64,000 nt of DNA, from assembly GCA_000996245.1 (NCBI GenBank), contig LBYP01000001.1, positions 17,197 to 81,196 on the forward strand, read 5' to 3'. This DNA comes from Parcubacteria group bacterium GW2011_GWA2_40_23 (GTDB lineage Bacteria > Patescibacteriota > Patescibacteriia > UBA11705 > JABHMO01). Positions 36,297 to 63,622 of this stretch are shown here, piece by piece; within the stretch, counting starts at the first letter, position 1, and each line of letters begins with the position of its first letter. The position numbers and the translations under genes were made by a program. Under the pieces are notes generated by a model, which did not search any database, had not been told where the DNA came from, and saw only the letters and a list, made by a program, of their open reading frames with translations.

Positions 36297-37016
36297 ATGG
36301 ATAAAGCCTTTAAAACAGAGGCGATAGTCCTCACTAAAAAAAACTGGAGGGAAAATGATCTCCTTTTTTCTTTCTATACAAAAGATTTTGGTAAAATTGA
36401 AGCAGTTGTTACGGGTGCCAGAAGATCCAAGAGTAAGTTGATCGGTCCACTTTCTAGCGTTGGCTTGATTGAAATACTTTTTGTTAAAGGAAAGGTTCAA
36501 AATAAAATTACGCATACTTATTTATTGTCGCCGTGGCCATTCAAAACCCTAGAAGAATTCCATTTTTTGTTAGCTGTGCGTGAAATTATCGCTCGTTTTG
36601 TTCAGGTTGGAGTTCCCAGTAAACCATTGTGGCAACTTTTGAAATGGTTTTCGGAAAAGTTAGTTGCATCTGAGAATAATGAGACAAAAAGATTACTGCT
36701 TAATATTTTCATGATTAGGTCTTTGCAGATTTTAGGTTATGATTTAAAAACAGACAACTGTGTCCAATGTGAATTACCAATTAATTCAGTCAGAAGATTT
36801 AGTTTTAATCACAAAGGTTTTGTGTGTACGAAATGTCACGGTGGGGATATGAACACTTCACAAAAAATGTTTGAAACAATAAAAAAAATCCAGAATCAGG
36901 ATTTTATTAAGGAATTAAGTATCGATAAATCTTCTAACAAAGAACTGTTTATTTTTTTAAAGAAGTATCTGCAGTATTTTCTAGAAAGGGAAGTGCGAAG
37001 TTTGTCTCTAATTTAA
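36297..37016 (+). CDS. recO: DNA repair protein RecO
   Basis: 239 aa. N-terminal OB fold and a C-terminal zinc finger CVQC...CTKCHG. Confidence 0.7.
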   Translation: MDKAFKTEAIVLTKKNWRENDLLFSFYTKDFGKIEAVVTGARRSKSKLIGPLSSVGLIEILFVKGKVQNKITHTYLLSPWPFKTLEEFHFLLAVREIIARFVQVGVPSKPLWQLLKWFSEKLVASENNETKRLLLNIFMIRSLQILGYDLKTDNCVQCELPINSVRRFSFNHKGFVCTKCHGGDMNTSQKMFETIKKIQNQDFIKELSIDKSSNKELFIFLKKYLQYFLEREVRSLSLI

Positions 37017-37799
37017 TTTTGTTAGTCCGTTGGCAATATCCAGGCAGGCCTGGGTATATTTTTTTAGGTTTGTTTTCTGTTTCTCGGTAATTTTATCACA
37101 AGCCCAGCCCCAATGATAAGAAATATTATCTCCAATCGTTGGATTTTGTAAAAAACTTTTGTGTAAAAGTTTAAAAGATATGTTTTTATCAATTGTCTCT
37201 GACAGTTTTAGCCTATTATTTTCGTAAACTAAGCGTTGTGTTTCAACGATTAAATCGTTCTCGGAAATTTTTTTAACTTTACCCCAACCAATGCGGCAAC
37301 TATCCATTGATTCAAGCGTATGGGGAACTGCTAAATGACCAGTCCTAAAATATATATTCAAAACATGAAAACAGTGATGGGGGATGGCACCTCGAGGGAT
37401 TTTACCCATGAGCAACTCTAAGTCTTTTGGTTGGAGTTTTTTCTTAAGATGGAGGCCATCAACAAAGTGCGAGTATAAACGTTTCATCGAAACATTCTCA
37501 AGCAATTCATTCCCGAGCCAATAAGCTTCGACTATACGTGCGTCAAAAACATCCTTTATTTTATTCGATTCAGCAATCAATTTTAAATAGGGAAAGAGTG
37601 TTTGAAATTCTTTTAATAACGCAGATAAGCCAGGATCACTGACATTCTCGGTATTATAAGCAAAAAGTTCCTCATTGTTTGGGCCACCACAATATTGCAG
37701 CCGGTTGGGCATGAAAGCATAACGGGCACAGGTGAGGAGCCCATTAGATTGTGGCTGGTTCTGTTTTATGAAGTCGGTTAAAGACATAAGTGAAAGCAA
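37008..37799 (-). CDS. Hypothetical protein
   Basis: 263 aa, no family recognised. The 5' end overlaps the upstream transporter ORF by up to 56 nt, so the true start may be internal (for example the Met at 37712). Confidence 0.5.
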   Translation of the reverse strand: MLSLMSLTDFIKQNQPQSNGLLTCARYAFMPNRLQYCGGPNNEELFAYNTENVSDPGLSALLKEFQTLFPYLKLIAESNKIKDVFDARIVEAYWLGNELLENVSMKRLYSHFVDGLHLKKKLQPKDLELLMGKIPRGAIPHHCFHVLNIYFRTGHLAVPHTLESMDSCRIGWGKVKKISENDLIVETQRLVYENNRLKLSETIDKNISFKLLHKSFLQNPTIGDNISYHWGWACDKITEKQKTNLKKYTQACLDIANGLTKLN

Positions 37800-38649
37800 T
37801 GGCTGCGATAATTAGAATAACTGAACTGCTGAGCTGTTGAAGATTGTATTTGTGAGTGACAAAAATTGAGTTCAAGGCGGTCGTTATGGGTGAGGCAATA
37901 ACTAAAACACTGGTAACAACTGTTGCTGGGAGTTTTTGTAGCGCTTGATACCAAGTAAGAACGTACCCAAGTAAAAAGGCTGAACTAATTGTCAGCCATA
38001 ACCATTGGGTTGAATTTAAGGCGATGAGTCCCGCGGTTTGATTCGTCAAAACCAAATAACTGAGAAGGAAAAGTGCACCAAAAAACATTCTGCCCCAGCT
38101 GACAATTTTAGCATCAACATTCTGTAAAATCTTTTTCGCTATGACAAATTCAATTGCCCAAAGCAAGGTTGCTCCAAGTATTAAAAAGTCAGCGTACGAA
38201 AATTTCCAGGTTTTTACCCCCACTAAAAAATAATTTCCCAGTAAAAGAACAGCTAAGGCAAACCATTGAACTTTACTAAGTTTTTCTTTCAAAAAAGGAA
38301 TGGCTAATAATGTGACCCAAATAAAAAGTGTTTTGTGAATGAAGCCAGCATTAACTGCAGAAGTTAAACTTAAACCTTTGAAGAACATTAGGAAAGGGAT
38401 ACTTCCTCCGATTAGTCCAATCAAAACGAGCTTTAACCAATCATTTCTTTGTAGAAGTTTTAGTTTTTTGAAAACAAAGGGAGTGAGAATAAAAAGAGAA
38501 AGTACCAATGCGACTAAAATGTTCTTGGCAGTTGTTAGAACGCTTGGGTTTGTGATAACTTTGGTGGCAAAACTATTGAAGAATACTGAGCAGCCGCTGA
38601 TAATGGCGGTGCCAAAGACGAGAAGTAGAGCTTTTTGTTTTGAGGTCAT
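37744..38649 (-). CDS. EamA/DMT-superfamily transporter
   Basis: 301 aa, about 10 TM helices, two EamA-like repeats. Confidence 0.75.
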   Translation of the reverse strand: MTSKQKALLLVFGTAIISGCSVFFNSFATKVITNPSVLTTAKNILVALVLSLFILTPFVFKKLKLLQRNDWLKLVLIGLIGGSIPFLMFFKGLSLTSAVNAGFIHKTLFIWVTLLAIPFLKEKLSKVQWFALAVLLLGNYFLVGVKTWKFSYADFLILGATLLWAIEFVIAKKILQNVDAKIVSWGRMFFGALFLLSYLVLTNQTAGLIALNSTQWLWLTISSAFLLGYVLTWYQALQKLPATVVTSVLVIASPITTALNSIFVTHKYNLQQLSSSVILIIAAIAFTYVFNRLHKTEPATI

Positions 38650-38854: not shown

Positions 38855-38884
38855 AAGTATCTTAATAGTACAAGAAATTTAGGT

Positions 38885-38923
38885 AAAAAAGAAGTCCCCA
38901 CACCGATGCCGATGTGAGGACTT
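38885..38923 (-). terminator. Rho-independent terminator of the GC-rich island-1 gene
   Basis: On the minus strand: AAGTCC-(20 nt loop)-GGACTT-c-TTTTTT. A second hairpin GTCCC...GGGAC lies at 38924-38939. Confidence 0.55.
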
Positions 38924-38949
38924 GTCCCGTGAGAGGGACGGGGGACAGG

Positions 38950-40026
38950 CTACGCCTTGGCGCCGTCGCGGATGGCGCGGCAGCGGGCGAAGCCGAAGGG
39001 GAACAGGGGGCAGGACGAGCCGGCGCAGATGCCCATGAGGCACATGGCGGCGTGCTCTGCCGCGTAGTAGCGGGGGTCGAGCGCGATCTTCACGATCTGG
39101 ATCAGCCGCTCGAACGGGATCTTGGTCGGGTCGATGCCCTTGGCAGAGTGCGACCCGTTCAGGATGCTGTGACCGTGTGCGAAGTGCCACACGCTTTCTT
39201 CGTCGTCGCCGCGCAGCTTCTTCTCTTCTACCTCGATGGCGTTGGCGAGGTCGCTCAGGTCCAGTCCCAGGCGCTGGTCGGTCTGGATCGCCACGTTCCC
39301 GCGGGAGTCGATCTTGACGACGACCGCGGCGTTGGCACCATGCTGGCTACGAGCGTAGCGCATGATCGCCATCGAGTCGCTCCGCACCGAGCACAGGGTG
39401 ATGTCCCCCTTGCTGCTGCGGATGGTCTCGATCTTGGAGTTGGCCTCGAAGTCCTTCTTGGAGGTCTCCACGAAGTCGAAGTGATCGAACACCTTCGCCT
39501 CCATCCCCAGCTCCAGCCATTTTTTCCAGTTCCTCTTGTCCTGGGCCAGCAGCATTGCGATGAGCTGAAGGCTGTAGTCGTTCGACGGGTTCAGCTCGCC
39601 GATCTTGACGTCGAAGGCCGCGTAGGCCCACTCCAGCATGTCGACGGCAGGGACGTTCTGCATCCCCATGAAGGTGAGGATCCTGCAGAGGTTGAAGGGT
39701 TGGTCGCCGGAGTTCGTGTCGTTCTTGTGCACGTAGTTCAGCAACCCCGCGATCTGCGGGGTGTGCTCGACGTGCAAAGCGTTGGCCAGCAACATGGCGC
39801 TGCTGGTTTCGCCAGACTTCATCAGGTGGTCGTTGAAGCGACCCTTGCCCACGCCGAACTCCAGGATGCCTTCGGGCGAGGCGTACTCGCGCAAGAAGGC
39901 GGGCGTGCCCCAATTTTCGGCGATGTAGCAGCACAGAAACTCGTCCGGGTGAGGGTTGGTATGCGTCACCACGATGATTTTGCGTCCCGCCACTTTGACG
40001 GGAATGCGGATCGTCTCTCTGGCCAT
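38950..40026 (-). CDS. GC-rich island-1 gene: putative UPF0160/MYG1-like metal-dependent hydrolase
   Basis: 358 aa with normal amino-acid composition and strong G/C third-position bias. VVTHTNPHPDEFLCCYIA resembles the MYG1 THxGxFHxDEALAC motif. GVGKGRFNDH and HFAHGHSILNGSH resemble later MYG1 metal-site segments. Consensus SD GGAGG lies 7 nt upstream. Confidence 0.6.
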   Translation of the reverse strand: MARETIRIPVKVAGRKIIVVTHTNPHPDEFLCCYIAENWGTPAFLREYASPEGILEFGVGKGRFNDHLMKSGETSSAMLLANALHVEHTPQIAGLLNYVHKNDTNSGDQPFNLCRILTFMGMQNVPAVDMLEWAYAAFDVKIGELNPSNDYSLQLIAMLLAQDKRNWKKWLELGMEAKVFDHFDFVETSKKDFEANSKIETIRSSKGDITLCSVRSDSMAIMRYARSQHGANAAVVVKIDSRGNVAIQTDQRLGLDLSDLANAIEVEEKKLRGDDEESVWHFAHGHSILNGSHSAKGIDPTKIPFERLIQIVKIALDPRYYAAEHAAMCLMGICAGSSCPLFPFGFARCRAIRDGAKA

Positions 40027-40085
40027 GAAAGCACCTCCAGTAAATGGTTTTTGTTGACTCTTAACTGTGTCCTTTTGAACTAGCC

Positions 40086-40127
40086 ATTATAGCATACTTT
40101 TATCTTTTTGTCAACTCTTTTTGTCAA
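40086..40127 (-). promoter_or_regulatory. Perfect-consensus sigma70 promoter driving island-1 gene (TTGACA-17-TATAAT), with a second TTGACA 13 nt upstream
   Basis: Seen directly on the minus strand: -35 at 40109-40114, -10 at 40086-40091, extra TTGACA at 40122-40127. Confidence 0.6.
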
Positions 40128-40294
40128 CTGTGAGTATAAGGGTTTTCTTTAACTGCACAGCAAGTCCATTTAAAGGAATGATAAATATTTTTATCTAAAT
40201 TTAAACGTTTTTTGTCTTTAACAAAACAAAAAAAAGACAATTTTTGTCTTTTTTTAAAAGGTTTACCATGAAGTCACACTTCGTGTGTACTTCA

Positions 40295-40373
40295 TGGTGG
40301 ACGCTAGTGGGGTCGAACCACTGACCTCCTCGACGTCAACGAGGCGCTCTAGCCAACTGAGCTAAGCGTCCAC
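40295..40373 (-). tRNA. tRNA-Val (anticodon GAC)
   Basis: GTGGACGCTTAGCTCAGTTGGCTAGAGCGCCTCGTTGACGTCGAGGAGGTCAGTGGTTCGACCCCACTAGCGTCCACCA. 7-bp acceptor stem, anticodon loop TTGACGT, encoded CCA. Confidence 0.85.
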
Positions 40374-40616
40374 AAAGTACAGACTTTGCCTGACTTTATG
40401 GCAAGCCCCTAGTCGGCAAAGCTGTTTTTGATGGACAATAGATTTGTTTTTTATTAACGTGGCTTGTCACGTACTGACGTATGGTTCACCAGGAAGTACA
40501 CACGAAGTGTGACTTCATGGCAAGCCAGGCAGTATAAACAGAGTTTAACTTCATAGCAAGCCTAAAGCTATGCTGTCGTATGGTTCACCATAAAGTCACG
40601 CGTAGCGTGTACTTTA

Positions 40617-40693
40617 TGGTGGGCCTGATGGGACTCGGACCCATGACCCCCACTTTATAAGAGTGGTGCTCTAACCAGCTGAGCTACAGGCCC
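40617..40693 (-). tRNA. tRNA-Ile (anticodon UAU)
   Basis: GGGCCTGTAGCTCAGCTGGTTAGAGCACCACTCTTATAAAGTGGGGGTCATGGGTCCGAGTCCCATCAGGCCCACCA. Ile-type body (resembles tRNA-Ile GAU) but the anticodon loop is CTTATAA. The T-loop is TCCGAGT (C at position 55). Confidence 0.7.
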
Positions 40694-40851
40694 TGAACTA
40701 CTCGTTCCTCGAGTTCAGGGCAAGCCCGAATCGAGGATGCGGAAAAATAGTGTGCTTCGCTCGGGTTTCGGGCAAGCCCTTCATCGAGGAAAGCGATCAA
40801 ACGTGATTGAATAATATCAAATATCAAACTATTTGTCGAGGTAAGAAGCAG

Positions 40852-42006
40852 CTAAAGTATTATTTGGGCAGCGGTTTCTAGAATGCTTTGCTTATTGGTA
40901 TTGAAAGGGAATTTAATCAAAGTCTTTTGACCTTGTGGGTTATAAATACTAAAGTAATTCCTTAAATCAACACCTTTTTCTGATTTAATAATGGAATAGG
41001 TTTGATTTCCTTTTTGAAAGAAAATTATTGAAAGTTCCACTGTCGGTATGTTGCTGATTAACTCCTCAAGAACACCTGAGAGGTCTTTTTCATCTGTCCT
41101 AGTATCAAAAAAGTCTTGTTCTGTAATTTCGGTCCAAGCAATCTTTTGTCTAACATCCGTCTCAAGTTTTAAAAGTGTTTTACCCCACAAGCGAAGAGTA
41201 TTTACTGATCTTGTCTGATAAAGGTTTTTGATAATAGAATCTCGTTCGGCCCCTGCAGCCATAAGTTGGCTGGCGATATTTAAGCTTTTGGGAGTAATTG
41301 TTGGAATTTTAAAACTCTTGGTTCTTTCTATCATGCCGGTTAAAAGATGCGTGGCCATTTGCTCATCCATAAGGCTAGGATCGAGCGAATCAATTAAATC
41401 ATAAAGGATTTCGGAAACTGAGGTTGCAGTTATATTAATCAAATTGATATGGCCATAATGTTCGTTTTCTGGTGAATAATCAATGTTGATAATGGGTACA
41501 TTGAAGAAAAATTCAGTATTGTCTTCGTAAAATTTTTCTAGTGATGAAAGATCTGGTGTATTCAAGGTAATAATCAGATCATGTTTATAGCTGGTTTCAG
41601 AAATTTTAATATTTTCTTTGGTAAAATCAGCTTGATCTGAGTTAATGTGAATATGTAACTGATTGTCTCGTTCTTCATGCTCTAGATGATGGCTTCTAAT
41701 GGCTGGGTGATCAAGCGAGATCGTGACCCGTTTAAGGTTAGTACTTTGTCTTTTAATCTTTTCAACCCCTTCTAAAAATTTAAAATTGTCCGGCAATTCG
41801 TATTGCGGCGCAATGATATCACAAGAGCGATTCCATTTTTTAAGTAAGCGACCAAGAGCTAGGCTGCTGGCAACCACATCACCGGTTGCTTCTTTGTGGA
41901 AGGTGATGAGTGGGTACTGACTTTTCTGGATCGTTTCGTAGAGTTGTTGTTGCTGTGTTAAAGACATAAATGAAAGTGACGGGGTAGCTACCTTAAAGCC
42001 ACACAA
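40852..42006 (-). CDS. DHH-family phosphoesterase (NrnA-like nanoRNase/pAp phosphatase)
   Basis: HKEATGDVVASSLAL resembles the NrnA HxxPDGDAxGSxxAL motif. The C-terminal DHHA1-like region is present. The true start may be the internal Met (MSLTQQQQ, about 41964). Confidence 0.65.
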   Translation of the reverse strand: MCGFKVATPSLSFMSLTQQQQLYETIQKSQYPLITFHKEATGDVVASSLALGRLLKKWNRSCDIIAPQYELPDNFKFLEGVEKIKRQSTNLKRVTISLDHPAIRSHHLEHEERDNQLHIHINSDQADFTKENIKISETSYKHDLIITLNTPDLSSLEKFYEDNTEFFFNVPIINIDYSPENEHYGHINLINITATSVSEILYDLIDSLDPSLMDEQMATHLLTGMIERTKSFKIPTITPKSLNIASQLMAAGAERDSIIKNLYQTRSVNTLRLWGKTLLKLETDVRQKIAWTEITEQDFFDTRTDEKDLSGVLEELISNIPTVELSIIFFQKGNQTYSIIKSEKGVDLRNYFSIYNPQGQKTLIKFPFNTNKQSILETAAQIIL

Positions 42007-42156: not shown

Positions 42157-45100
42157 ATGGAAATTGATAAAGCTTATAGCCCCCAGGAAAAAGAAGAAAA
42201 AATTTATACTGATTGGCAAAAAAAAGGACTTTTTAATCCAGATACTTTAAATAGAAAAGGCGCCAAGGCTTTCTCAATTGTTTTACCGCCGCCAAATGTT
42301 ACCGGCACTTTGCATTTGGGGCATGCTTCGATGTTGGCTATTGAAGATTTAATGATCCGCTATAAACGCATGCAAGGTTTCGATACTCTATGGGTACCAG
42401 GGACAGACCATGCGGCTATTGCCACTCAAAATGTGGTTGAGAAAAAAATTTATAATGAAGCCAAAAAGACTCGTCACGATTTTGAGCGTGATGATTTTTT
42501 ATCTTTAGTGGCTGATTTTGCTGAAAAATCAAAAGAGACAATCCGCAATCAAGTGCGAAAAATGGGTTCAAGCTTAGATTGGAGTCGCGAAGCTTATACG
42601 TTGGATGAGGTTAGAAGTAAGGCTGTCAAAAAAGTTTTCAAAATGATGTCTGACGATGGTTTGGTTTATCGTGGATACCGTATCGTCAATTGGTGCCCGC
42701 GATGTCACACAACTTTAGCTGACGATGAAATTGTATACAAGGAAACAAAGAGTAAATTATATTGGATAAAATATGGTCCGTTTGTTTTAGCTACAACTAG
42801 GCCTGAAACAAAGCTGGGAGATACGGCTGTAGCTGTAAATCCAGGCGACGAACGTTATAAAGACATGGTCGGAAAGAAATATATGATCCCAGGGGTTTTG
42901 GGAGAGTTTGAAATTACTGTTATTGCTGATGAAGCAGTTGATCCTGTCTTTGGTTCTGGCGCAGTTAAAGTTACGCCAGGACATAGTGTAGTTGATTATG
43001 ACATGGCTATGCGTCATCACATTAAAGTTAAAAAGATTATCGACGAAGATGGTCGCATGATGGCAAATTGTGGAAAGTATGCCGGCATGACAACGTTCGA
43101 AGCGCGCGAAGCGATTGTCAAAGATATGCAAGCTATGGGTTTGATCGAAAAGATTGATGAAGATTATGATAATAAATTGTCAGTTTGTTATCGTTGCAAA
43201 ACAATCGTGGAACCATTGCCATCGTCTCAATGGTTTATTGATGTTAATAAAAAAATTATTAAGAAAGATAATAAGTATTTTAAAAATGGAGCTTCGCTTA
43301 AAGAAGTATCGCTCAAAGTTGTGCGTGATGGAGAAATTAAAATTATTCCTGAGAGATTTGAAAAAACATATTTTCAATGGATGGAAAATTTGCGTCCTTG
43401 GTGTATTTCACGTCAAATATGGTTTGGCCATCGCATTCCTGTTTGGTATAAAAAACAAAAATCTTTTTTGGTTATGGCTTCACGTCACGGAGAAGCTAAA
43501 AATAATCACGAAAAGCTTTTAAATTCAGATATAAACTATCGTTCATATACGTTAACTGAAAAAGGCAGAGCCGATATTGCCGCTGATGCTGAAAGATTGA
43601 AACGAGAAGGACATAAATTCGATATAATTTTTACTTCAGACTTTGAAAGAACAATGCAAACTGCAAAAGTTTTTGCAGAAGCTTTTAAGGCTGAAATTAT
43701 TCCAGAAAAACGTTTACGTGAAGTCGGTATGGGTGAGTTTGATGGGCAAGAAGATGTGCCCGAAGGACCATTTGACCAATTGCGTAATAATTTTGAGGGC
43801 TGGCATCACAATAGTCCAAAGGGAATTGAATCTTTTGATAGTTTAAAGATACGGGTCGAATCCTTTCTTAATGAAATTAAAGCTAAATATCCAGATAAGA
43901 AAGTTATGATTGTAACTCATGGTGACCCACTGAGAATTATAAATGGATACGGCACAGATTTTTCTGACGAAGAAATATTTAATTTGGGTTTTCCTGGAGT
44001 CGGTGAACAGATTTGGATTGATTTAGCTCGTAAAAAAGAACGAGTTGTGACAGAAGAGGTTTTGGATTCTAGTGAATGGGAACAAGATTCAGACACCCTT
44101 GATACTTGGTTCTCGGCCGGACTTTGGTCATTTACAACTTTGTTGCCAAAGGATTGGGACGGCAAAGACTTCAAGTCCGCTGACATGAAACGATTTCACC
44201 CCACAACAGTTTTAGAAACAGGTTATGATATTATTTTCTTTTGGGTAGCGCGTATGATTCTTATGACCACTTATGTTTTGGGTGAAGTGCCATTTGAAAA
44301 TGTTTATTTACATGGTTTGATCCGGGATATAGACGGCGAAAAAATGTCAAAATCAAAACCGGAGACATCCATCGATCCATTAGACGCGGGGAACAAATAT
44401 GGTTTTGATGCGGTTCGTCTCAGCCTCTTGATTGGCAACTCTGCTGGCAATGATATTCGTTTATACGATGAAAAAATTGAAAGCTATCGTAATTTCGTTA
44501 ATAAACTTTGGAATGTGGCTCGTTTCATTTTAACTTCGGTTTCAGATATCTCAGTTGACACCAAGAATCTTGTGGGAGACACTTTAGCTGATAAGTGGAT
44601 TCTGTCCCGATTCAACACTTTGAAACGCGAAGTTACTAGATTATTAGATGAATACAATTTTTCTTTGGCTGGTGAAATGCTACGAGATTTTACTTGGTAC
44701 GAACTCGCTGATTGGTATTTGGAAATTGCTAAAGTCGAAAAAAATAAAGATGCTATTTTGATGAGTATACTTAAAGAGGTTTTGGCTATGTGGCATCCAT
44801 TCGTTCCATTCGTTACAGAAGCGATTTGGAGTAATCTTAATCAACCAGAACAATTGATCGTCAGCGCTTGGCCGGAGACACAGAAAGATTTTATCGACGA
44901 AAAGATCGAAAAACAATTTGAAGTTATTAAACAGATCACAGTCGGAATCCGAAACGTCAGAGCTGAATATAATATTCCATATTCAAAAGACATTGAAGCG
45001 ATCGTCGCTGTAAATTCAGATGCCGAAATGATTGAATCAAATCAAGATGTTGTGAAAAGAATTACACGATTAACAGAATTCAAAGTTGTCGAAGTCGCTA

Positions 45101-45390
45101 AGGGCACAGAATATCCTCAACCAGAAGGTTATGTTTCTGGCGGAACATTTAGTCTCGGGACAGTTTTTGTTAATCTTTCCGGTGCAGTAGATTTGAGTAA
45201 AGAAAGGGAACGCTTACAAAAAGAATTAGATAGTTTAGAAAAATATCTTTCTGGATTAGAAAAGAAATTGTCGAACGATGAGTATGTTAAAAATGCTCCG
45301 GCGAATATTGTGGAAGCAGATAAGGCTCGTCAACTTGAGTCTCAGGAGAAAGTCACGAGCTTGAAAGCACAAATTGCAGAATTAAAATAA
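42157..45390 (+). CDS. valS: Valyl-tRNA synthetase with an inserted histidine-phosphatase (PGAM-like) domain
   Basis: HIGH-type PPNVTGTLHLGHA, KMSKS, and the C-terminal coiled coil. Between WFGHRIPVWY and DSDTLDTWFS lies an in-frame segment of about 210 aa (nt about 43450-44086). Within it, SRHGEAKNN ... IIFTSDFERTMQTA ... VMIVTHGDPLR match the histidine-phosphatase branch-1 signature. Confidence 0.9.
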   Translation: MEIDKAYSPQEKEEKIYTDWQKKGLFNPDTLNRKGAKAFSIVLPPPNVTGTLHLGHASMLAIEDLMIRYKRMQGFDTLWVPGTDHAAIATQNVVEKKIYNEAKKTRHDFERDDFLSLVADFAEKSKETIRNQVRKMGSSLDWSREAYTLDEVRSKAVKKVFKMMSDDGLVYRGYRIVNWCPRCHTTLADDEIVYKETKSKLYWIKYGPFVLATTRPETKLGDTAVAVNPGDERYKDMVGKKYMIPGVLGEFEITVIADEAVDPVFGSGAVKVTPGHSVVDYDMAMRHHIKVKKIIDEDGRMMANCGKYAGMTTFEAREAIVKDMQAMGLIEKIDEDYDNKLSVCYRCKTIVEPLPSSQWFIDVNKKIIKKDNKYFKNGASLKEVSLKVVRDGEIKIIPERFEKTYFQWMENLRPWCISRQIWFGHRIPVWYKKQKSFLVMASRHGEAKNNHEKLLNSDINYRSYTLTEKGRADIAADAERLKREGHKFDIIFTSDFERTMQTAKVFAEAFKAEIIPEKRLREVGMGEFDGQEDVPEGPFDQLRNNFEGWHHNSPKGIESFDSLKIRVESFLNEIKAKYPDKKVMIVTHGDPLRIINGYGTDFSDEEIFNLGFPGVGEQIWIDLARKKERVVTEEVLDSSEWEQDSDTLDTWFSAGLWSFTTLLPKDWDGKDFKSADMKRFHPTTVLETGYDIIFFWVARMILMTTYVLGEVPFENVYLHGLIRDIDGEKMSKSKPETSIDPLDAGNKYGFDAVRLSLLIGNSAGNDIRLYDEKIESYRNFVNKLWNVARFILTSVSDISVDTKNLVGDTLADKWILSRFNTLKREVTRLLDEYNFSLAGEMLRDFTWYELADWYLEIAKVEKNKDAILMSILKEVLAMWHPFVPFVTEAIWSNLNQPEQLIVSAWPETQKDFIDEKIEKQFEVIKQITVGIRNVRAEYNIPYSKDIEAIVAVNSDAEMIESNQDVVKRITRLTEFKVVEVAKGTEYPQPEGYVSGGTFSLGTVFVNLSGAVDLSKERERLQKELDSLEKYLSGLEKKLSNDEYVKNAPANIVEADKARQLESQEKVTSLKAQIAELK

Positions 45391-45425: not shown

Positions 45426-46610
45426 ATGCCAACTGACACTGATTCTAAAAAAATTGAAGAATTATTAACGCGTGGTGTTGAGGAAGTTATCGATCGTGAA
45501 AGTTTAAAGAAAAAACTTCAAAGTGGAAAAAAATTACGCATTAAGTTCGGAGTTGATCCAACTTCTCCTGATTTACATGTTGGGCATGCTGTTCCATTAC
45601 GAAAGCTGAGACAATTTCAAGACGCGGGGCATCAAGTTATTCTGCTCATTGGTGATTATACAGCAATGGTCGGAGATCCAAGTGGGAGGAATGAAACTCG
45701 TCCAATGTTGGCACGGGAAGATGTTGAGAAGAACATGAAAACGTATATAGAACAAGCAACTCGTATTTTGAAAATGGATGATGTTGAGTTGCGTTATAAT
45801 AGTGAGTGGTATGAAGATAAGGGCTGGAACTTTATTATGTCTCTAACGGGGAAAATTACTGTTGCTCGTGTTTTAGATAGAGATGATTTTCAAAAGAGAT
45901 TAAAAGAGGGTTCAGATATTCAAATGCAGGAAATATTGTATCCTCTTATGCAGGGGTATGATTCTGTCGAATTGAAGGCGGATGTTGAAATTGGTGGTAC
46001 TGATCAGAAATTTAATATGTTGATGGGAAGAAAGCTACAAAAAAAATATAATGAACCCGAACAGGATGTGATAACAATTCCATTGCTTGTGGGTCTTGAT
46101 GGTGAAAAAAAGATGAGTAAAAGCTATGGTAATTACATTGCTCTTACGGATTCGGTTGAGGAAATGTTTGGGAAAATTATGTCTATTCCTGATCATCTGA
46201 TTATAAAATATTTTGAGTTAGCCACGGCAACATCAATGGAGAAGATTGAAGAGATTAAACATAGAATGGAGAACGGAGAAAATCCACGCGACTTAAAGTT
46301 AGAGTTGGCTGGAGCTGTCGTCGAAATATATTATGGCGTTAAAGCTGCCACTGAAGCCAAGGAAAACTTTTTACAAATGTTTCAAAAGAAAGAAGTGCCA
46401 GATGATATTGCAGAATTGAAATTAGCAGGTGCTTCCATCATCGATGTTTTGGTTGAAGCAAAGTTTGTGACTTCAAAAACCGATGCTCGTCGTAACATTG
46501 AACAAAAAGGCGTCAAGTTGAATGGGGCTGTCGTCTCGGATCTTGCTCAAACTGTAAAAAGCGGGGACATAATTCAAAAAGGTAAAAGGTTTTTCATCAA
46601 AATAAAATAA
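45426..46610 (+). CDS. tyrS: Tyrosyl-tRNA synthetase
   Basis: HVGH, KMSKS, and a C-terminal S4-like domain. Confidence 0.9.
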   Translation: MPTDTDSKKIEELLTRGVEEVIDRESLKKKLQSGKKLRIKFGVDPTSPDLHVGHAVPLRKLRQFQDAGHQVILLIGDYTAMVGDPSGRNETRPMLAREDVEKNMKTYIEQATRILKMDDVELRYNSEWYEDKGWNFIMSLTGKITVARVLDRDDFQKRLKEGSDIQMQEILYPLMQGYDSVELKADVEIGGTDQKFNMLMGRKLQKKYNEPEQDVITIPLLVGLDGEKKMSKSYGNYIALTDSVEEMFGKIMSIPDHLIIKYFELATATSMEKIEEIKHRMENGENPRDLKLELAGAVVEIYYGVKAATEAKENFLQMFQKKEVPDDIAELKLAGASIIDVLVEAKFVTSKTDARRNIEQKGVKLNGAVVSDLAQTVKSGDIIQKGKRFFIKIK

Positions 46611-50048: not shown

Positions 50049-50237
50049 ATGACACCAAAAGTAAACAAAGAAGCTTGCATTGGTTGCGGCACATGCGTTT
50101 CTCTTGCTGGTGATATTTTTCAAATGGGATCAGATGGCAAAGCAGAAGTTATCCCAGGCTGTGATTGTGCTGGTAAGGAAGAATTAGTCAATCAATCTAA
50201 GGATGCTTGCCCGGTTCAGGCAATTAGCGTAGAATAG
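50049..50237 (+). CDS. Small 4Fe-4S ferredoxin
   Basis: 62 aa, CIGCGTC...C...CP. Confidence 0.8.
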   Translation: MTPKVNKEACIGCGTCVSLAGDIFQMGSDGKAEVIPGCDCAGKEELVNQSKDACPVQAISVE

Positions 50238-50251
50238 TTTTATCGTTTGGT

Positions 50252-50279
50252 GTAGGGACAAGTCCCGACCTGTCCCTAC
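50252..50279 (+). terminator. Hairpin after the ferredoxin gene (GTAGGGACA-agtcccgacc-TGTCCCTAC)
   Basis: 9-bp perfect stem, followed by an A/T tract and then tRNA-Leu. Confidence 0.4.
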
Positions 50280-50290
50280 ATTAAAAATTT

Positions 50291-50377
50291 GCTCAGGTGG
50301 CGAAATTGGTACACGCACTACCTTGAGGTGGTAGCGGCCGCAAGGCCATGGAGGTTCAAGTCCTCTCCTGAGCACCA
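50291..50377 (+). tRNA. tRNA-Leu (anticodon GAG), with a long variable arm
   Basis: GCTCAGGTGGCGAAATTGGTACACGCACTACCTTGAGGTGGTAGCGGCCGCAAGGCCATGGAGGTTCAAGTCCTCTCCTGAGCACCA. Encoded CCA. Confidence 0.85.
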
Positions 50378-50522
50378 TAAAGTACACGATTCTCGTGACT
50401 TTATGGCTGGTCATGGAGTTAACTTCTGGTATACTTCAGGGTGAACCATGGTTTTAAATAGATGAATTTAATAGTCCTTAAGTGTTATTTTTTTGACATG
50501 CCATGTCCCAGTTGACGAAACA

Positions 50523-50552
50523 GATTTTTGGTGTTAAAGTAATGAGTCCATT
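50523..50552 (+). promoter_or_regulatory. Candidate promoter for island-2 (TTGACG-17-TAAAGT), followed by the SD GGAAGGGAGAG
   Basis: Seen directly in the AT-rich leader immediately before the GC-rich block. Confidence 0.4.
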
Positions 50553-50597
50553 GAACAGTGCAAAACCTGATTCCGCGGGAGGCGGAAGGGAGAGAAA

Positions 50598-51324
50598 AAT
50601 GCGTCCTATACCTTTACCCGATCGCCTGGACCTAAAACTCCAAGAGATCAACACGAAGCTACGAGGCTTCGGTGTTCCGTTCGACCTGTCTCGTTTGGGG
50701 AATTTCCGCAAGGGAGATTGGCAGATTGACGATGTCATTTCTGTCTTTGCTCATCGGGAGTTCAAGATCGCGGTCTGTTTCATCCTTTTGAAGCCGTGGA
50801 CTGGTGAGCGAACTGAGTATTGGTGCCAGTTCAATAGCACCTACTCGAGCGAAGCTCTGTCCGGCCACATCGTGATTCCCGTGGTGAACGGAACGCACTT
50901 TTTGATGATCAAGTCGTACGGGACTTTCATCGGAGTAGCGCCGCTCCTTTTTCCCCGAGGATTCATCCCGAAGTCGAAAGAGGATTTGCCGGCCGTGGTA
51001 GTTGCGCAGAGTTTGATCGAGCGCAAGCTCGGGGATTGCCTTACGGCTGTCCAGGGTGAAGTTCAAGGTCAAGCTCAGCTTCTGCGTGGTGAGCGCGGCA
51101 CCTTGCGTCTGGCCGAAGATCAGAGCACCAGCGGAAACTGGGTTACAGTCTCGGTCGTCCAGATCAAACTGGATATGGCCAAGTTCGAAGAACGACCCAA
51201 GGATTTCCGTGCGTTCAAGTTGGTTGCCATCAGCGATTTCCTTCAGCGAGTTGTCGCAGGCGAGATCGTTGATATGCACTCTCTTTCCGCATACGTGATG
51301 TACACGGCGGCGAGCAAAGGCTAG
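50598..51324 (+). CDS. GC-rich island-2 gene A: degenerate Nudix-fold-like protein
   Basis: Start chosen at MRPIPLPD, with SD GGAAGGGAGAG 5 nt upstream. The track's 50503 start lies in the AT-rich promoter. LFPRGFIPKSKEDLPAVVVAQSLIERKLG occupies the Nudix-box position but lacks the canonical REx2EE. Confidence 0.5.
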
Positions 51325-51399
51325 CGGGAGGCTAGTCTGGACAATTCTGTTTTCTGACTGTTTAGACGGGAGGTCTGACAGTGAGAAGGCAAGGTTGCT

Positions 51400-52077
51400 A
51401 TGATTCGAGATCTGTTGAAGGCACTCGCTCAGGGTGCCACGGCGGGTTGGAAGCTCCGTGTCAACGGAGTGGAAGTCCCGGCGAACGAAGTCGAGCTCGA
51501 GAACCTCAAGTTCGGGATGATCCGTTGGGGTTCCCTCGGGAGCTACGACTCCTGGGGCTTCCAGGAGGTGGGCGGTGGTGGTGCGGTCCTCGTGCCGTAC
51601 TTCGTCCACCCCGAGCGTGGCATCGTGGTCGGCCTGGTGCAGCAGCCCCGGCCGTTCATGTCCGAGAAGCCGGTGTGGAACCTGCCGCGCGGCTTCATGA
51701 ACCCGGGCCAGACGCACTTCAAGTCGGCCACGGGTGAAGCCCTCGAGGAGATCGGCTCCACCGACGGCAATCGCATCTTCCTGCTGAACGGTGAGCCGGC
51801 CAACCCCAACTCGACCTTCTTCGTCACTCGTGGCAACAACGCCGACGGCAGCCCCAAGGGCATCCGCTTCTACGGCGTCGGCTTCCTGCCCAGCGAGTTC
51901 GAGCCCGAGGGCAACGGCTTCAAGTTCAAGCCTGGCGTGGTCGTTCCGGCCACCAAGGACGCCGAGAAGATCATGGGCTGCCGGTTCGTCGACTGGATGG
52001 AAGCGACGCAGCTCGGCTGCATGATGACCATCTCGGGCGTCGCTCGTCTCGTCGTGTACAAGTACACGGATCTCTGA
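51400..52077 (+). CDS. GC-rich island-2 gene B: Nudix-hydrolase-like (ADP-ribose pyrophosphatase-like) with a variant Nudix box
   Basis: GGGAVLVPYFVHPERGIVVGLVQQ...WNLPRGFMNPGQTHFKSATGEALEEIG = G-x5-Q-x7-GE-x2-EE-xG. The canonical Nudix box is G-x5-E-x7-RE-x2-EE-xG. Confidence 0.55.
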   Translation: MIRDLLKALAQGATAGWKLRVNGVEVPANEVELENLKFGMIRWGSLGSYDSWGFQEVGGGGAVLVPYFVHPERGIVVGLVQQPRPFMSEKPVWNLPRGFMNPGQTHFKSATGEALEEIGSTDGNRIFLLNGEPANPNSTFFVTRGNNADGSPKGIRFYGVGFLPSEFEPEGNGFKFKPGVVVPATKDAEKIMGCRFVDWMEATQLGCMMTISGVARLVVYKYTDL

Positions 52078-52084
52078 TCCACAA

Positions 52085-52120
52085 CCCCCATTCGATGCAA
52101 GGTCGAGTGGGGGCATTTTT
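52085..52120 (+). terminator. Terminator of island-2 (CCCCCA-t-TCGA-tgcaagg-TCGA-g-TGGGGG-catTTTTT)
   Basis: Seen directly. Confidence 0.55.
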
Positions 52121-62388: not shown

Positions 62389-62419
62389 AGAGCCGGAACG
62401 ATGAGATCGTTCCGGCTCT
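62389..62419. terminator. Bidirectional terminator: a perfect 14-bp stem (AGAGCCGGAACGAT-gag-ATCGTTCCGGCTCT)
   Basis: Seen directly between convergent genes. It marks the left edge of GC-rich island-3. Confidence 0.65.
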
Positions 62420-62426
62420 TGTTGTC

Positions 62427-62714
62427 TTAGCTTCGTGATTTGATCTGCTCGGCACGATCCCACGCAGCCTGGATCGTAGCGGAGGTCGGGCCAAGATCCG
62501 GGTTCTCGTACGGATATTGGCGTCCTGGAAAGAGGGTCGGATTTTCTTGGCCACAGGAACAGAACCACCCCGTAGCGTCGCTATTCAAGACATTGGCTGT
62601 TTTGTGGCATTTGCCACAAGTGGCGCCTGTCATGCCTGGATAAGCAGCCCAAGTGGTCATGGCCTCGACCAGCTCGTCTTCGGTGTAGCTGTGGAAACGG
62701 TCCTTCGCCATCAT
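62427..62714 (-). CDS. GC-rich island-3 gene: small Cys-rich zinc-ribbon-like protein
   Basis: 95 aa, with CGKCHK...CSCGQE. Confidence 0.5.
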   Translation of the reverse strand: MMAKDRFHSYTEDELVEAMTTWAAYPGMTGATCGKCHKTANVLNSDATGWFCSCGQENPTLFPGRQYPYENPDLGPTSATIQAAWDRAEQIKSRS

Positions 62715-62722
62715 AGCCTCCT

Positions 62723-63319
62723 TTACACGGTCGCTTGCGCGACCGGTTGCGCAAATTGGTGTCGTTGCTTCTTGAGCGGTTCGCGCAGATAGATGACGAC
62801 GAGCTGGAAGTCGTTATAACTGCGCTTACGCCATTGACGCCATGACCCACAGGAGGCACCGAGGTTCGTTCCCTTGAGGACGAACCAGGGAGCCAAGTGT
62901 CCGTACGGATTGGGGATGATCTCGAGTTCATGGTAGCCGGGTGCGAGAGCGATGGGGTCCTTGCATTTGGGCTGGTTGCTATCATAGACCGTGTGCTGTG
63001 ATCCTCGAACCAGCGCGTAGATGTGCTTGGTCTTGCGGTAGTGGAGGGTCACGCCGCTCTCGGGGTCGGCGGACTTGGCCTGCCAGGCGTCGCTGGCGAT
63101 GCCGGTCATGGTGCCGGTGAGGACGTACCACGGCGAGCCGTGATCGAAGCCGTACGGATTTTCCACTTCTTCGAGCTGGTAGTAGCCAGGCTCGAGAGTG
63201 TAGTCCGCGAAATCAGGATCACGGTCGAGATCGCGGTCTGCCTCGGTCTGAGGAACGTGCTCGAACAGCCGAATTGGCTTGCGCACCAGGGCGAAGATGA
63301 ACTGTTTTCTTTCGATCAT
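62723..63319 (-). CDS. GC-rich island-3 gene: protein built from two copies of an unrecognised ~90-aa domain
   Basis: Repeat 1 is FIFALVRK...PGYYQLEEVENPYGFDHGSPWYVLTGTMTGIASDAW. Repeat 2 is HIYALVRG...PGYHELEIIPNPYGHLAPWFVLKGTNLGASCGSW. Confidence 0.55.
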   Translation of the reverse strand: MIERKQFIFALVRKPIRLFEHVPQTEADRDLDRDPDFADYTLEPGYYQLEEVENPYGFDHGSPWYVLTGTMTGIASDAWQAKSADPESGVTLHYRKTKHIYALVRGSQHTVYDSNQPKCKDPIALAPGYHELEIIPNPYGHLAPWFVLKGTNLGASCGSWRQWRKRSYNDFQLVVIYLREPLKKQRHQFAQPVAQATV

Positions 63320-63331
63320 CGCCGTTACTCC

Positions 63332-63622
63332 TTACGCTGTTACGATGAGGGTGGGCGGCGGGGTCAACTTGATGTTGAGCGGCGTGTCCTGGATGATTAC
63401 CGTCGGCCAGTAGTTCTTGCAGGCGCCGATCTTGCTGCCCTTGATCACGTACCAGGGAATTTCGTGTCCCAGCGGGTTCTTGATCTCTTCCAGTTCGTAG
63501 TCGCCGGCCGCGAGCTCCAACTTGGCGTGGTAGTATTCCGGCTTTCCAGCGAGGTTACCTTGGAAGACTGTGAATCCGGGGAGCTTGAGGTGGACGTAGA
63601 TGAACTTTTCTTGCGTAGCCAT
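63332..63622 (-). CDS. GC-rich island-3 gene: single-domain paralog of the same ~90-aa domain
   Basis: FIYVHLKL...AGDYELEEIKNPLGHEIPWYVIKGSKIGACKNYW. SD AAGGG lies upstream. Confidence 0.55.
   Translation of the reverse strand: MATQEKFIYVHLKLPGFTVFQGNLAGKPEYYHAKLELAAGDYELEEIKNPLGHEIPWYVIKGSKIGACKNYWPTVIIQDTPLNIKLTPPPTLIVTA

Follow-up and report, generated by a model that had tools for sequence, protein, structure and literature searches.

A GC-rich gene for a predicted DHH/DHHA1-fold phosphoesterase at a conserved locus of AT-rich Patescibacteria

The GC-rich island and its locus

A DNA stretch of 64 kb from contig LBYP01000001.1, referred to here in its whole length as the window, harbors a sharply bounded island at 38.9-40.1 kb with a GC content of ~62% as compared to 38% in its surroundings. 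When GC was determined along the sequence, it rose from 0.33-0.35 to 0.58-0.66 at ~38.85-40.1 kb and then went back down. Examination of the open reading frames (ORFs) revealed one real gene in the island, which is located on the minus strand and encodes a protein of 358 amino acids (Table 1). On balance, we regard this gene as a long-resident and fast-evolving gene of Patescibacteria, the GC-rich coding sequence of which is probably maintained actively, and not as a recent import.

The GC content of the island gene at first, second, and third codon positions (GC1, GC2, and GC3) is 0.565, 0.398, and 0.903, respectively, at an overall GC of 0.62 for the coding sequence (CDS). GC3 of 60 native ORFs of the window amounts to 0.295 ± 0.041 with a range of 0.21-0.38; the island gene deviates from these with z = 15.0. 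GC3 well above both GC1 and GC2 indicates coding periodicity, and the codon usage resembles that of a typical high-GC genome. Hence, the original prediction of a GC-rich block of ~1.2 kb with one GC-biased gene of this size proved correct, and composition is far from uniform along the window.

The gene was also found in nine related loci and stands beside hypC and/or RecO in all seven for which flanking genes are visible. These loci are designated L001, L002, L003/L004 (one allele), L005, L006, L012, L013, and L017/L018 (one allele); the DNA context obtained covers ~12 of ~1100 family members. The full common order of tRNA cluster, gene, hypC, EamA, DUF6390, and RecO is present in L002 and L017, and the order runs on to RuvX-Map-Adk-SecY in L017 and L013. 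The sequence of L002 (CAZMEQ010000016.1) is labeled "uncultured Gammaproteobacteria bacterium", a label which was rejected as an error of binning or naming because gene content and synteny are those of Patescibacteria. As to the host of the window, its ribosomal operon L18-S5-L15 contains no L30 gene, its valyl-tRNA synthetase (ValRS) has relatives in Patescibacteria, Falkowbacteria, Komeilibacteria, and Magasanikbacteria, and relatives of a NUDIX-like protein encoded elsewhere in the window belong to named Parcubacteria and Azambacteria. Judged by the absent L30 gene and by the relatives of ValRS and the NUDIX-like protein, the host is a bacterium of the candidate phyla radiation (Patescibacteria).

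Opposite to the island gene, an antisense ORF extends over the full length of the CDS. This frame was open in 100% of the synonymous-codon permutations of the island gene; it is therefore an automatic by-product of GC3-rich coding, and antisense or dual coding at the island was rejected. Public gene calls for L017 (6846-7826) and for L018 (same coordinates) annotate the antisense ORF instead of the real gene.

Most of the expression signals of the gene are AT-rich. The original prediction had placed it between hypC and the tRNA-Val/Ile genes and had described a TTGACA-17-TATAAT promoter with a duplicated TTGACA, a GGAGG Shine-Dalgarno (SD) sequence, and a hairpin followed by T6 as terminator; all of these were located. 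The promoter is the sole perfect match to this pattern in the window; three further sites carry one mismatch, at a chance expectation of 0.73 for matches with ≤1 mismatch. Promoter and leader are common to eight of the nine related loci, and conservation at the nucleotide level comprises the AT-rich promoter, leader, and SD as well as the GC-rich terminator, with the sequence GTGTGGGGACTTCTTTTTT of the 3' untranslated region (UTR) being kept in relatives. Where the window has its duplicated -35 box, most relatives instead possess a GCTAAATTTAGC palindrome, which precedes their -35 box. In relatives, the stretch from tRNA-Val(GAC) to the island promoter contains this palindrome and a gene for tRNA-Val(CAC); comparison of the corresponding regions of the window (40130-40295), L017 (7830-8262), and L002 (8802-9277) showed that tRNA-Val(CAC) is present in L017 and L002 and missing from the window. 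A search of the leader and the 3' UTR against Rfam gave no family match.

The gene is followed on the same strand by the hypC-like gene, an EamA transporter gene, and a DUF6390 gene. Judged from spacing, read-through may place EamA and DUF6390 in one operon with the island gene. In L013, the most distant relative with 28% identity in the island protein, the HypC domain forms a fusion with a radical-SAM enzyme, and a radical-SAM/BATS gene comes next; this arrangement points to a functional link between the island gene and HypC. In L006 (1380-1910), hypC appears truncated, EamA is missing, and DUF6390 follows almost directly; this locus also carries the island allele most divergent relative to its flanks, which together suggests a local rearrangement.

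Table 1. Location of the island gene and of other features in the window
Feature	Position	Strand	Remarks
Island CDS, predicted DHH/DHHA1-fold phosphoesterase	38950..40026	-	Fold, motifs, GC3 0.90
Antisense ORF, 389 codons	38914..40083	+	By-product, not a gene
Sigma-70 promoter TTGACA-17-TATAAT	40086..40114	-	12/12 match, extended -10 TG; conserved in orthologous loci
Exact 13-nt tandem duplication GTTGACAAAAAGA x2	40103-40115 and 40116-40128	-	Doubles the -35 box; window-specific
AT-rich 5' leader	40027..40085	-	Conserved block GTTCGAAAG.ACA..GTT.A; nucleotide conservation in relatives
SD sequence GGAGG	40034-40038		7 nt 5' of ATG
GC-rich 3' UTR	38885..38949	-	Small hairpin 38924-38939 and intrinsic terminator
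Intrinsic terminator	38892-38923, 38885-38890		14-bp stem, then T6
hypC-like gene, 67 aa	38651..38854	-	PF01455, GC3 0.235; ~35 nt past terminator, same strand
EamA transporter	37744-38649	-	Downstream of hypC
DUF6390	37008-37799	-	Downstream of EamA, same strand
tRNA-Val(GAC)	40295-40371	-	Upstream boundary of locus; bracketed by long repeats
tRNA-Ile(UAU)	40617-40693	-	Upstream boundary; bracketed by long repeats
NrnA-like DHH protein	40852-42006
ValRS	42157-45390		Inserted histidine-phosphatase domain (PF00300)
TyrRS	45426-46610		63% identical to L017 orthologue
Island 2	50201-52100		Adjoins tRNA-Leu(GAG); orphan 273-aa ORF, GC3 0.61; NUDIX-like 225-aa ORF, GC3 0.87
Island 3	62401-63622	-	Three small orphan ORFs of 95, 198, and 96 aa, GC3 0.63-0.80

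The encoded protein and its family

A structure model of the island protein calculated from 70 sequences, which replaced a two-sequence model with a pLDDT of 60, reached a pLDDT of 96 and displays the two-domain fold of DHH/DHHA1 phosphoesterases. MYG1-like motif residues are present at H22, H26, D28, and E29, at G58, G62, D65/66, and H67, at D103, and at N290; those of the metal motifs (H22, H26, D28, E29, D65/66, H67, and D103) are invariant or near-invariant in the family. In addition, the C-terminus contains a conserved module of four cysteines, C329, C334, C339, and C349, which may form an extra metal or Fe-S site. The protein of the window is devoid of a 15-residue loop that is present in all eight relatives whose gene is complete (the L004 copy is truncated).

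An exhaustive HMMER search revealed a family that comprises 1109 representatives when clustered at 50%, the named members being without exception hypothetical proteins from Patescibacteria; hence, the expectation that such proteins are uncommon in bacteria was not borne out. The exhaustive search was needed to recover the family, since a word-indexed homologue search had returned a single match, in part owing to public gene calls on the antisense ORF; calls on the wrong strand hide the family from protein-based searches.

Searches with known profiles contributed little. A Pfam scan of the island protein gave no match at E ≤ 1, with PF03690, PF01368, and PF02272 included, scans against NCBIfam, PHROG, and PADLOC gave none either, and a sequence-profile search against the PDB yielded no match. 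Applied at E ≤ 0.01, PADLOC models matched neither the proteins of this and the two further GC-rich islands of the window nor those of hypC and DUF6390. Among 60 family members, none matched PF03690 at E ≤ 0.1, and one matched the Pfam DHH model (E = 0.084). PF09828, the ChrB C-terminal domain, matched 11 of the 60 over the N-terminal ~100 residues only, and not the protein of the window; identity with this domain was rejected as four examined members scored 16-23.5 bits, under the cut-off of 25, and it yields no function. The family profile showed no similarity to the NrnA-like DHH protein of the same genome. Furthermore, the family profile was aligned by hhalign with a human MYG1 sequence, which scores 458.7 bits on PF03690. 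The result was a probability of 2.8% (E = 0.016) over 50 columns, in which two metal-binding motifs pair exactly.

The likeness to MYG1/UPF0160 originally put forward was thus retained as regards the His/Asp motifs, but not as membership in UPF0160: the island protein is a DHH/DHHA1-fold protein with a MYG1-like motif set and, by profile test, no significant match to PF03690. MYG1, a metal-dependent 3'-5' RNA exonuclease, and the island protein share a similar size of ~350-380 amino acids; according to the non-significant hhalign alignment, the succession of T-H-x3/4-H-x-D-E and G-G-G/E ... D-H(H) would also correspond position by position. The C-x4-C-x4-7-C-x9-C module and an LLNGS motif of the island protein are absent from the human MYG1 sequence used. 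To DHH/DHHA1 phosphoesterases (RecJ/Cdc45, NrnA, PggH, PAP phosphatase, family II pyrophosphatase, and also the AlaRS C-Ala domain) the protein is 8-13% identical; unlike these, it has HxxxHxDE and GGGxFDEH in place of the canonical DxD and DHH motifs and adds the four-cysteine module. Fold and motifs suggest that the protein is a metal-dependent phosphoesterase or nuclease within the DHH/DHHA1 superfamily; nucleotides, short RNAs, or the 3' ends of RNAs are the likeliest candidates for its substrate.

GC content and sequence evolution in related loci

GC3 of the island gene is 0.61 in L013 and 0.66 in L005, 0.86 in L006 and L012, 0.90 in the window, 0.93 in L017, and 0.95-0.96 in L001-L003, as compared to 0.18-0.42 for the neighboring genes across the loci. 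L007, a family member at another locus of an AT-rich genome, is of ordinary composition with GC1, GC2, and GC3 of 0.47, 0.35, and 0.36; therefore, the anomaly belongs to the syntenic clade and not to the whole family. GC1 and GC2 of the island gene are also raised relative to the L007 homologue, and the pressure thus acts on nucleotides generally, beyond synonymous choice. GC3 is somewhat lower over the first 30 codons than over the last 30.

Codon identity at identical residues was compared with the value expected from codon usage. Observed and expected values relative to the window were 0.647 and 0.610 for L001, 0.653 and 0.619 for L002, 0.648 and 0.639 for L003, 0.553 and 0.564 for L012, and 0.429 and 0.401 for L013. 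As this equals the expectation for independent draws, synonymous sites are saturated between the copies, which nevertheless retain a GC3 ≥ 0.86 with the exception of L013.

The closest relative, L017, has a ValRS 93% identical to that of the window. Between the two, the synonymous divergence (dS) of the island gene is 0.59 and that of flanking genes 0.64-1.03; this flank-like value argues for co-inheritance. A two-state decay model was fitted to 1462 fourfold degenerate sites of the flanks of this pair (lambda*T = 1.37). Starting from a GC3 of 0.95, neutral decay since the split of window and L017 predicts ~0.64; the values observed are 0.90 and 0.93. Apparently, no amelioration of the island gene toward host composition has taken place. 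Among the differences at fourfold sites between window and L017, 58% are C<->G exchanges in the island gene as compared to 6% in the flanks.

The edges of the composition are sharp at every locus. GC is 0.31-0.42 in the 100 nt upstream of the gene and 0.29-0.40 at >70 nt downstream; the unconstrained spacer 100-250 nt upstream stays AT-rich, and the transitions take less than 40-70 nt.

The island gene evolves fast, its protein 4-20 times as fast as those of the neighboring genes. Its nonsynonymous divergence (dN) between window and L017 is 0.170 at a dN/dS of 0.29, whereas flanking genes show dN of 0.007-0.063 and dN/dS of 0.01-0.09, with the exceptions of hypC (dN 0.106) and the tyrosyl-tRNA synthetase (TyrRS) gene. 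L006, by RecO and RuvX the second-closest relative of the window, is 83% identical in each of these two proteins and 38% in the island protein. Furthermore, L001 and L002 share 77% identity in the island protein and 60% in HypC, while HypC of window and L001 is 76% identical. The tree of the island protein conflicts with those of its neighbors, which implies that alleles were replaced at least twice between related lineages. This agrees with the finding that most transfers detected in Patescibacteria occurred within the phylum (PMC12455944).

Two further GC-rich islands are present in the window. Island 2 shows a behavior similar to that of the first. The NUDIX assignment in island 2 is based on a weak match; at the syntenic site, the NUDIX gene has a GC3 of 0.64 in L014 and 0.93 in L016, and the island is absent from the closest relative L017. 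In island 3, the proteins of 198 and 96 amino acids have a repeated domain of ~90 residues in common (YELEEI.NP.G..PW.V.KG), and none of its proteins matched Pfam or PADLOC models.

Several observations concern the surroundings of the islands. TyrRS of the window has a dN of 0.32 to its L017 orthologue, as against 93-99% identity for its neighbors, which makes a replacement by recombination probable. The histidine-phosphatase domain inserted in ValRS occurs in many ValRS of Patescibacteria and is absent from others. tRNA-Ile with anticodon UAU is, to our knowledge, rare in bacteria; L002 and L017 have it at the same locus as well. Long inverted and direct repeats flank tRNA genes at 40260-40800 and 50380-50450 of the window and at 1-60 of L001. 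Around tRNA-Val, they include an inverted repeat of 43 nt with 91% complementarity, and ACTTCATGGCAAGCC and TATGGTTCACCA motifs recur; similar motifs adjoin tRNA-Leu and occur in relatives. These repeats may be processing or recombination elements, and contigs often break at them.

Explanations for the GC content and their implications

An artefact, be it assembly chimerism or a structured noncoding RNA of high GC content taken for a gene, is hardly conceivable. Contigs frequently end near the locus (L001, L003, and L005), and GC-rich islands of AT-rich genomes often represent structural RNAs. However, chimerism was rejected because the junctions are identical in independent assemblies from Logan, JGI, ENA, and GTDB, and a misread RNA because the protein is conserved over its 1109 homologues and modeled with high confidence, GC3 far exceeds GC1 and GC2, and Rfam gave no match. 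The original prediction had proposed an insertion of foreign DNA at a tRNA hotspot, and a single recent horizontal insertion to which host-type expression signals were added afterwards would account for the atypical composition, for the tRNA-Val and tRNA-Ile genes adjoining at 270-670 bp upstream, and for the self-contained cassette of promoter, gene, and terminator. In these traits, the island indeed resembles tRNA-associated genomic islands and phage "morons"; unlike them, it carries no mobility genes, as no integrase or transposase ORF is located within 36.5-42.5 kb, and no flanking direct repeats bracket it. Moreover, the gene is kept in all nine relatives examined, syntenic where flanks are visible, its synonymous sites are saturated between copies, its composition has not been ameliorated, and the family is native to Patescibacteria with the L007 member being of ordinary composition. 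A recent insertion was therefore rejected on account of the locus being conserved in relatives; we consider it very improbable.

Two further explanations were considered. GC-biased gene conversion (gBGC) in a recombination hotspot, with alleles repeatedly exchanged via the conserved tRNA and hypC flanks, would raise GC without any benefit from GC itself; mismatches in heteroduplexes of the divergent but still alignable CDS would be repaired preferentially to G/C. The conflict between the trees of the island gene and its flanks, the elevated dN/dS together with raised GC1 and GC2, and the excess of C<->G exchanges, consistent with rapid turnover from strong to weak and back to strong pairs, all fit this expectation. 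Gene transfer among Patescibacteria was reported to be frequent (PMC12455944), and gBGC was reported for bacteria (Lassalle et al. 2015, PMC4450053); as there, higher GC3 accompanies evidence of recombination, with an effect that is more pronounced at third positions and with raised dN/dS. Here, by contrast, GC3 of a single gene is raised by 0.6 with edges that follow the limits of the CDS and leave the upstream spacer unaffected, and the flank-like dS of window and L017 speaks against recent exchange, yet both copies have GC3 ≥ 0.90. We thus judge gBGC to be rather unlikely. Less probable still is that alleles were imported again and again from a GC-rich reservoir that has not been sampled, for example a host organism or a mobile element. 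The family would diversify there with a native GC3 of ~0.95, its alleles replacing the resident CDS in place and the gradient from 0.96 to 0.61 reflecting the time since the last import. Such a reservoir would explain the codon usage of a typical high-GC genome, the conflicting phylogenies, the GC3 graded across lineages, and also the accessory nature of the neighboring island 2 (present in L014 and L016, absent from L017). However, the closest homologues with DNA examined (8 of 8) all lie in AT-rich flanks, and at the same locus where flanking genes are visible. No GC-rich genome carrying a copy was found, and a viral-contig scan with a two-sequence profile as well as tblastn against phage and plasmid collections revealed no relatives. 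A donor would lack the AT-rich expression signals common to the related loci, and window and L017 show flank-like dS without amelioration. Genuine genomes of 65-70% GC have GC1 and GC2 above the 0.57 and 0.40 of the island gene.

We therefore return to active maintenance in a resident gene. In our interpretation, fixation biased toward G/C and limited to the coding region and the 3' hairpins opposes the AT-biased mutation of the genome, and a GC3 of 0.86-0.96 represents a maintained equilibrium. The most likely cause is selection on the transcript or on codon usage, which may act by stabilizing the mRNA, by protecting it from AU-directed RNases, or by a control of translation that depends on tRNAs. 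Selection is favored because the bias is confined to the CDS and its 3' hairpins and persists without recent exchange, and also because its size far exceeds known effects of gBGC in bacteria, which reportedly moves GC3 by a few percent rather than from 0.30 to 0.95. The gene is driven by a sigma-70 promoter close to the consensus and by a leader, both of which are conserved; a leaky terminator would probably let transcription reach hypC-EamA-DUF6390, and the predicted metal-dependent phosphoesterase or nuclease would probably work together with the adjacent HypC-like protein. In addition, alleles were occasionally exchanged between related lineages by recombination.

Several points weigh against this interpretation. 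Selection and gBGC predict most of the same patterns, so that the maintaining agent is not singled out, and DNA from ~12 family members is compatible with an unsampled GC-rich donor pool. The 58% of C<->G exchanges could mean that alleles coalesce earlier than the flanks, and dS estimates are unreliable for a gene with pinned GC3. Folding of the mRNA is slightly stronger than that of synonymous-permuted controls (z = -2.7, -2.1, and -0.8), which gives a specific selected mRNA structure little support. The function is deduced from fold and motifs of a protein that has neither the canonical DHH motifs nor a match to a Pfam model, and read-through of the operon into hypC is deduced from spacing only.

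Tentatively, the lineage may keep a small class of genes "GC-recoded" against AT mutation, comprising the phosphoesterase gene, the NUDIX island, and perhaps island 3; this is possible but less than an even chance in our view. Transcripts of this kind would form a privileged expression class, either resistant to AU-directed decay or dependent on adjacent tRNAs for G/C-ending codons. A small set of genes using codons rare in the genome is found in Streptomyces with the bldA/TTA system. Similarly, genes for tRNAs reading G/C-ending codons (Val-GAC, Val-CAC, and Leu-GAG) adjoin the GC-rich islands; unlike in the bldA system, the whole island gene and not one rare codon is recoded. If such a class exists, selection on gene-specific composition would be strong enough to hold GC3 >0.9 over saturated divergence.

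In the literature on GC-rich islands in Patescibacteria and on DUF6390, no description of such a locus was found. Atypical GC content is routinely taken as a sign of recent horizontal transfer; for the island gene, this default reading is wrong because GC3 is 0.86-0.96 in seven of nine relatives, next to neighbors of 0.2-0.4 and beyond synonymous saturation. Furthermore, islands of this kind lead gene callers to annotate the wrong strand. The locus defines an uncharacterized enzyme family of the DHH superfamily that has >1000 representatives in Patescibacteria and is linked to a HypC-like protein. If selection is the true cause, it would be among the strongest cases known in bacteria of gene-specific selection on composition or codon choice; if biased gene conversion is responsible, it would be stronger than in any case known from prokaryotes. 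With its many lineages and graded GC3, the locus provides a natural replicated test bed for what sets the GC content of bacteria.

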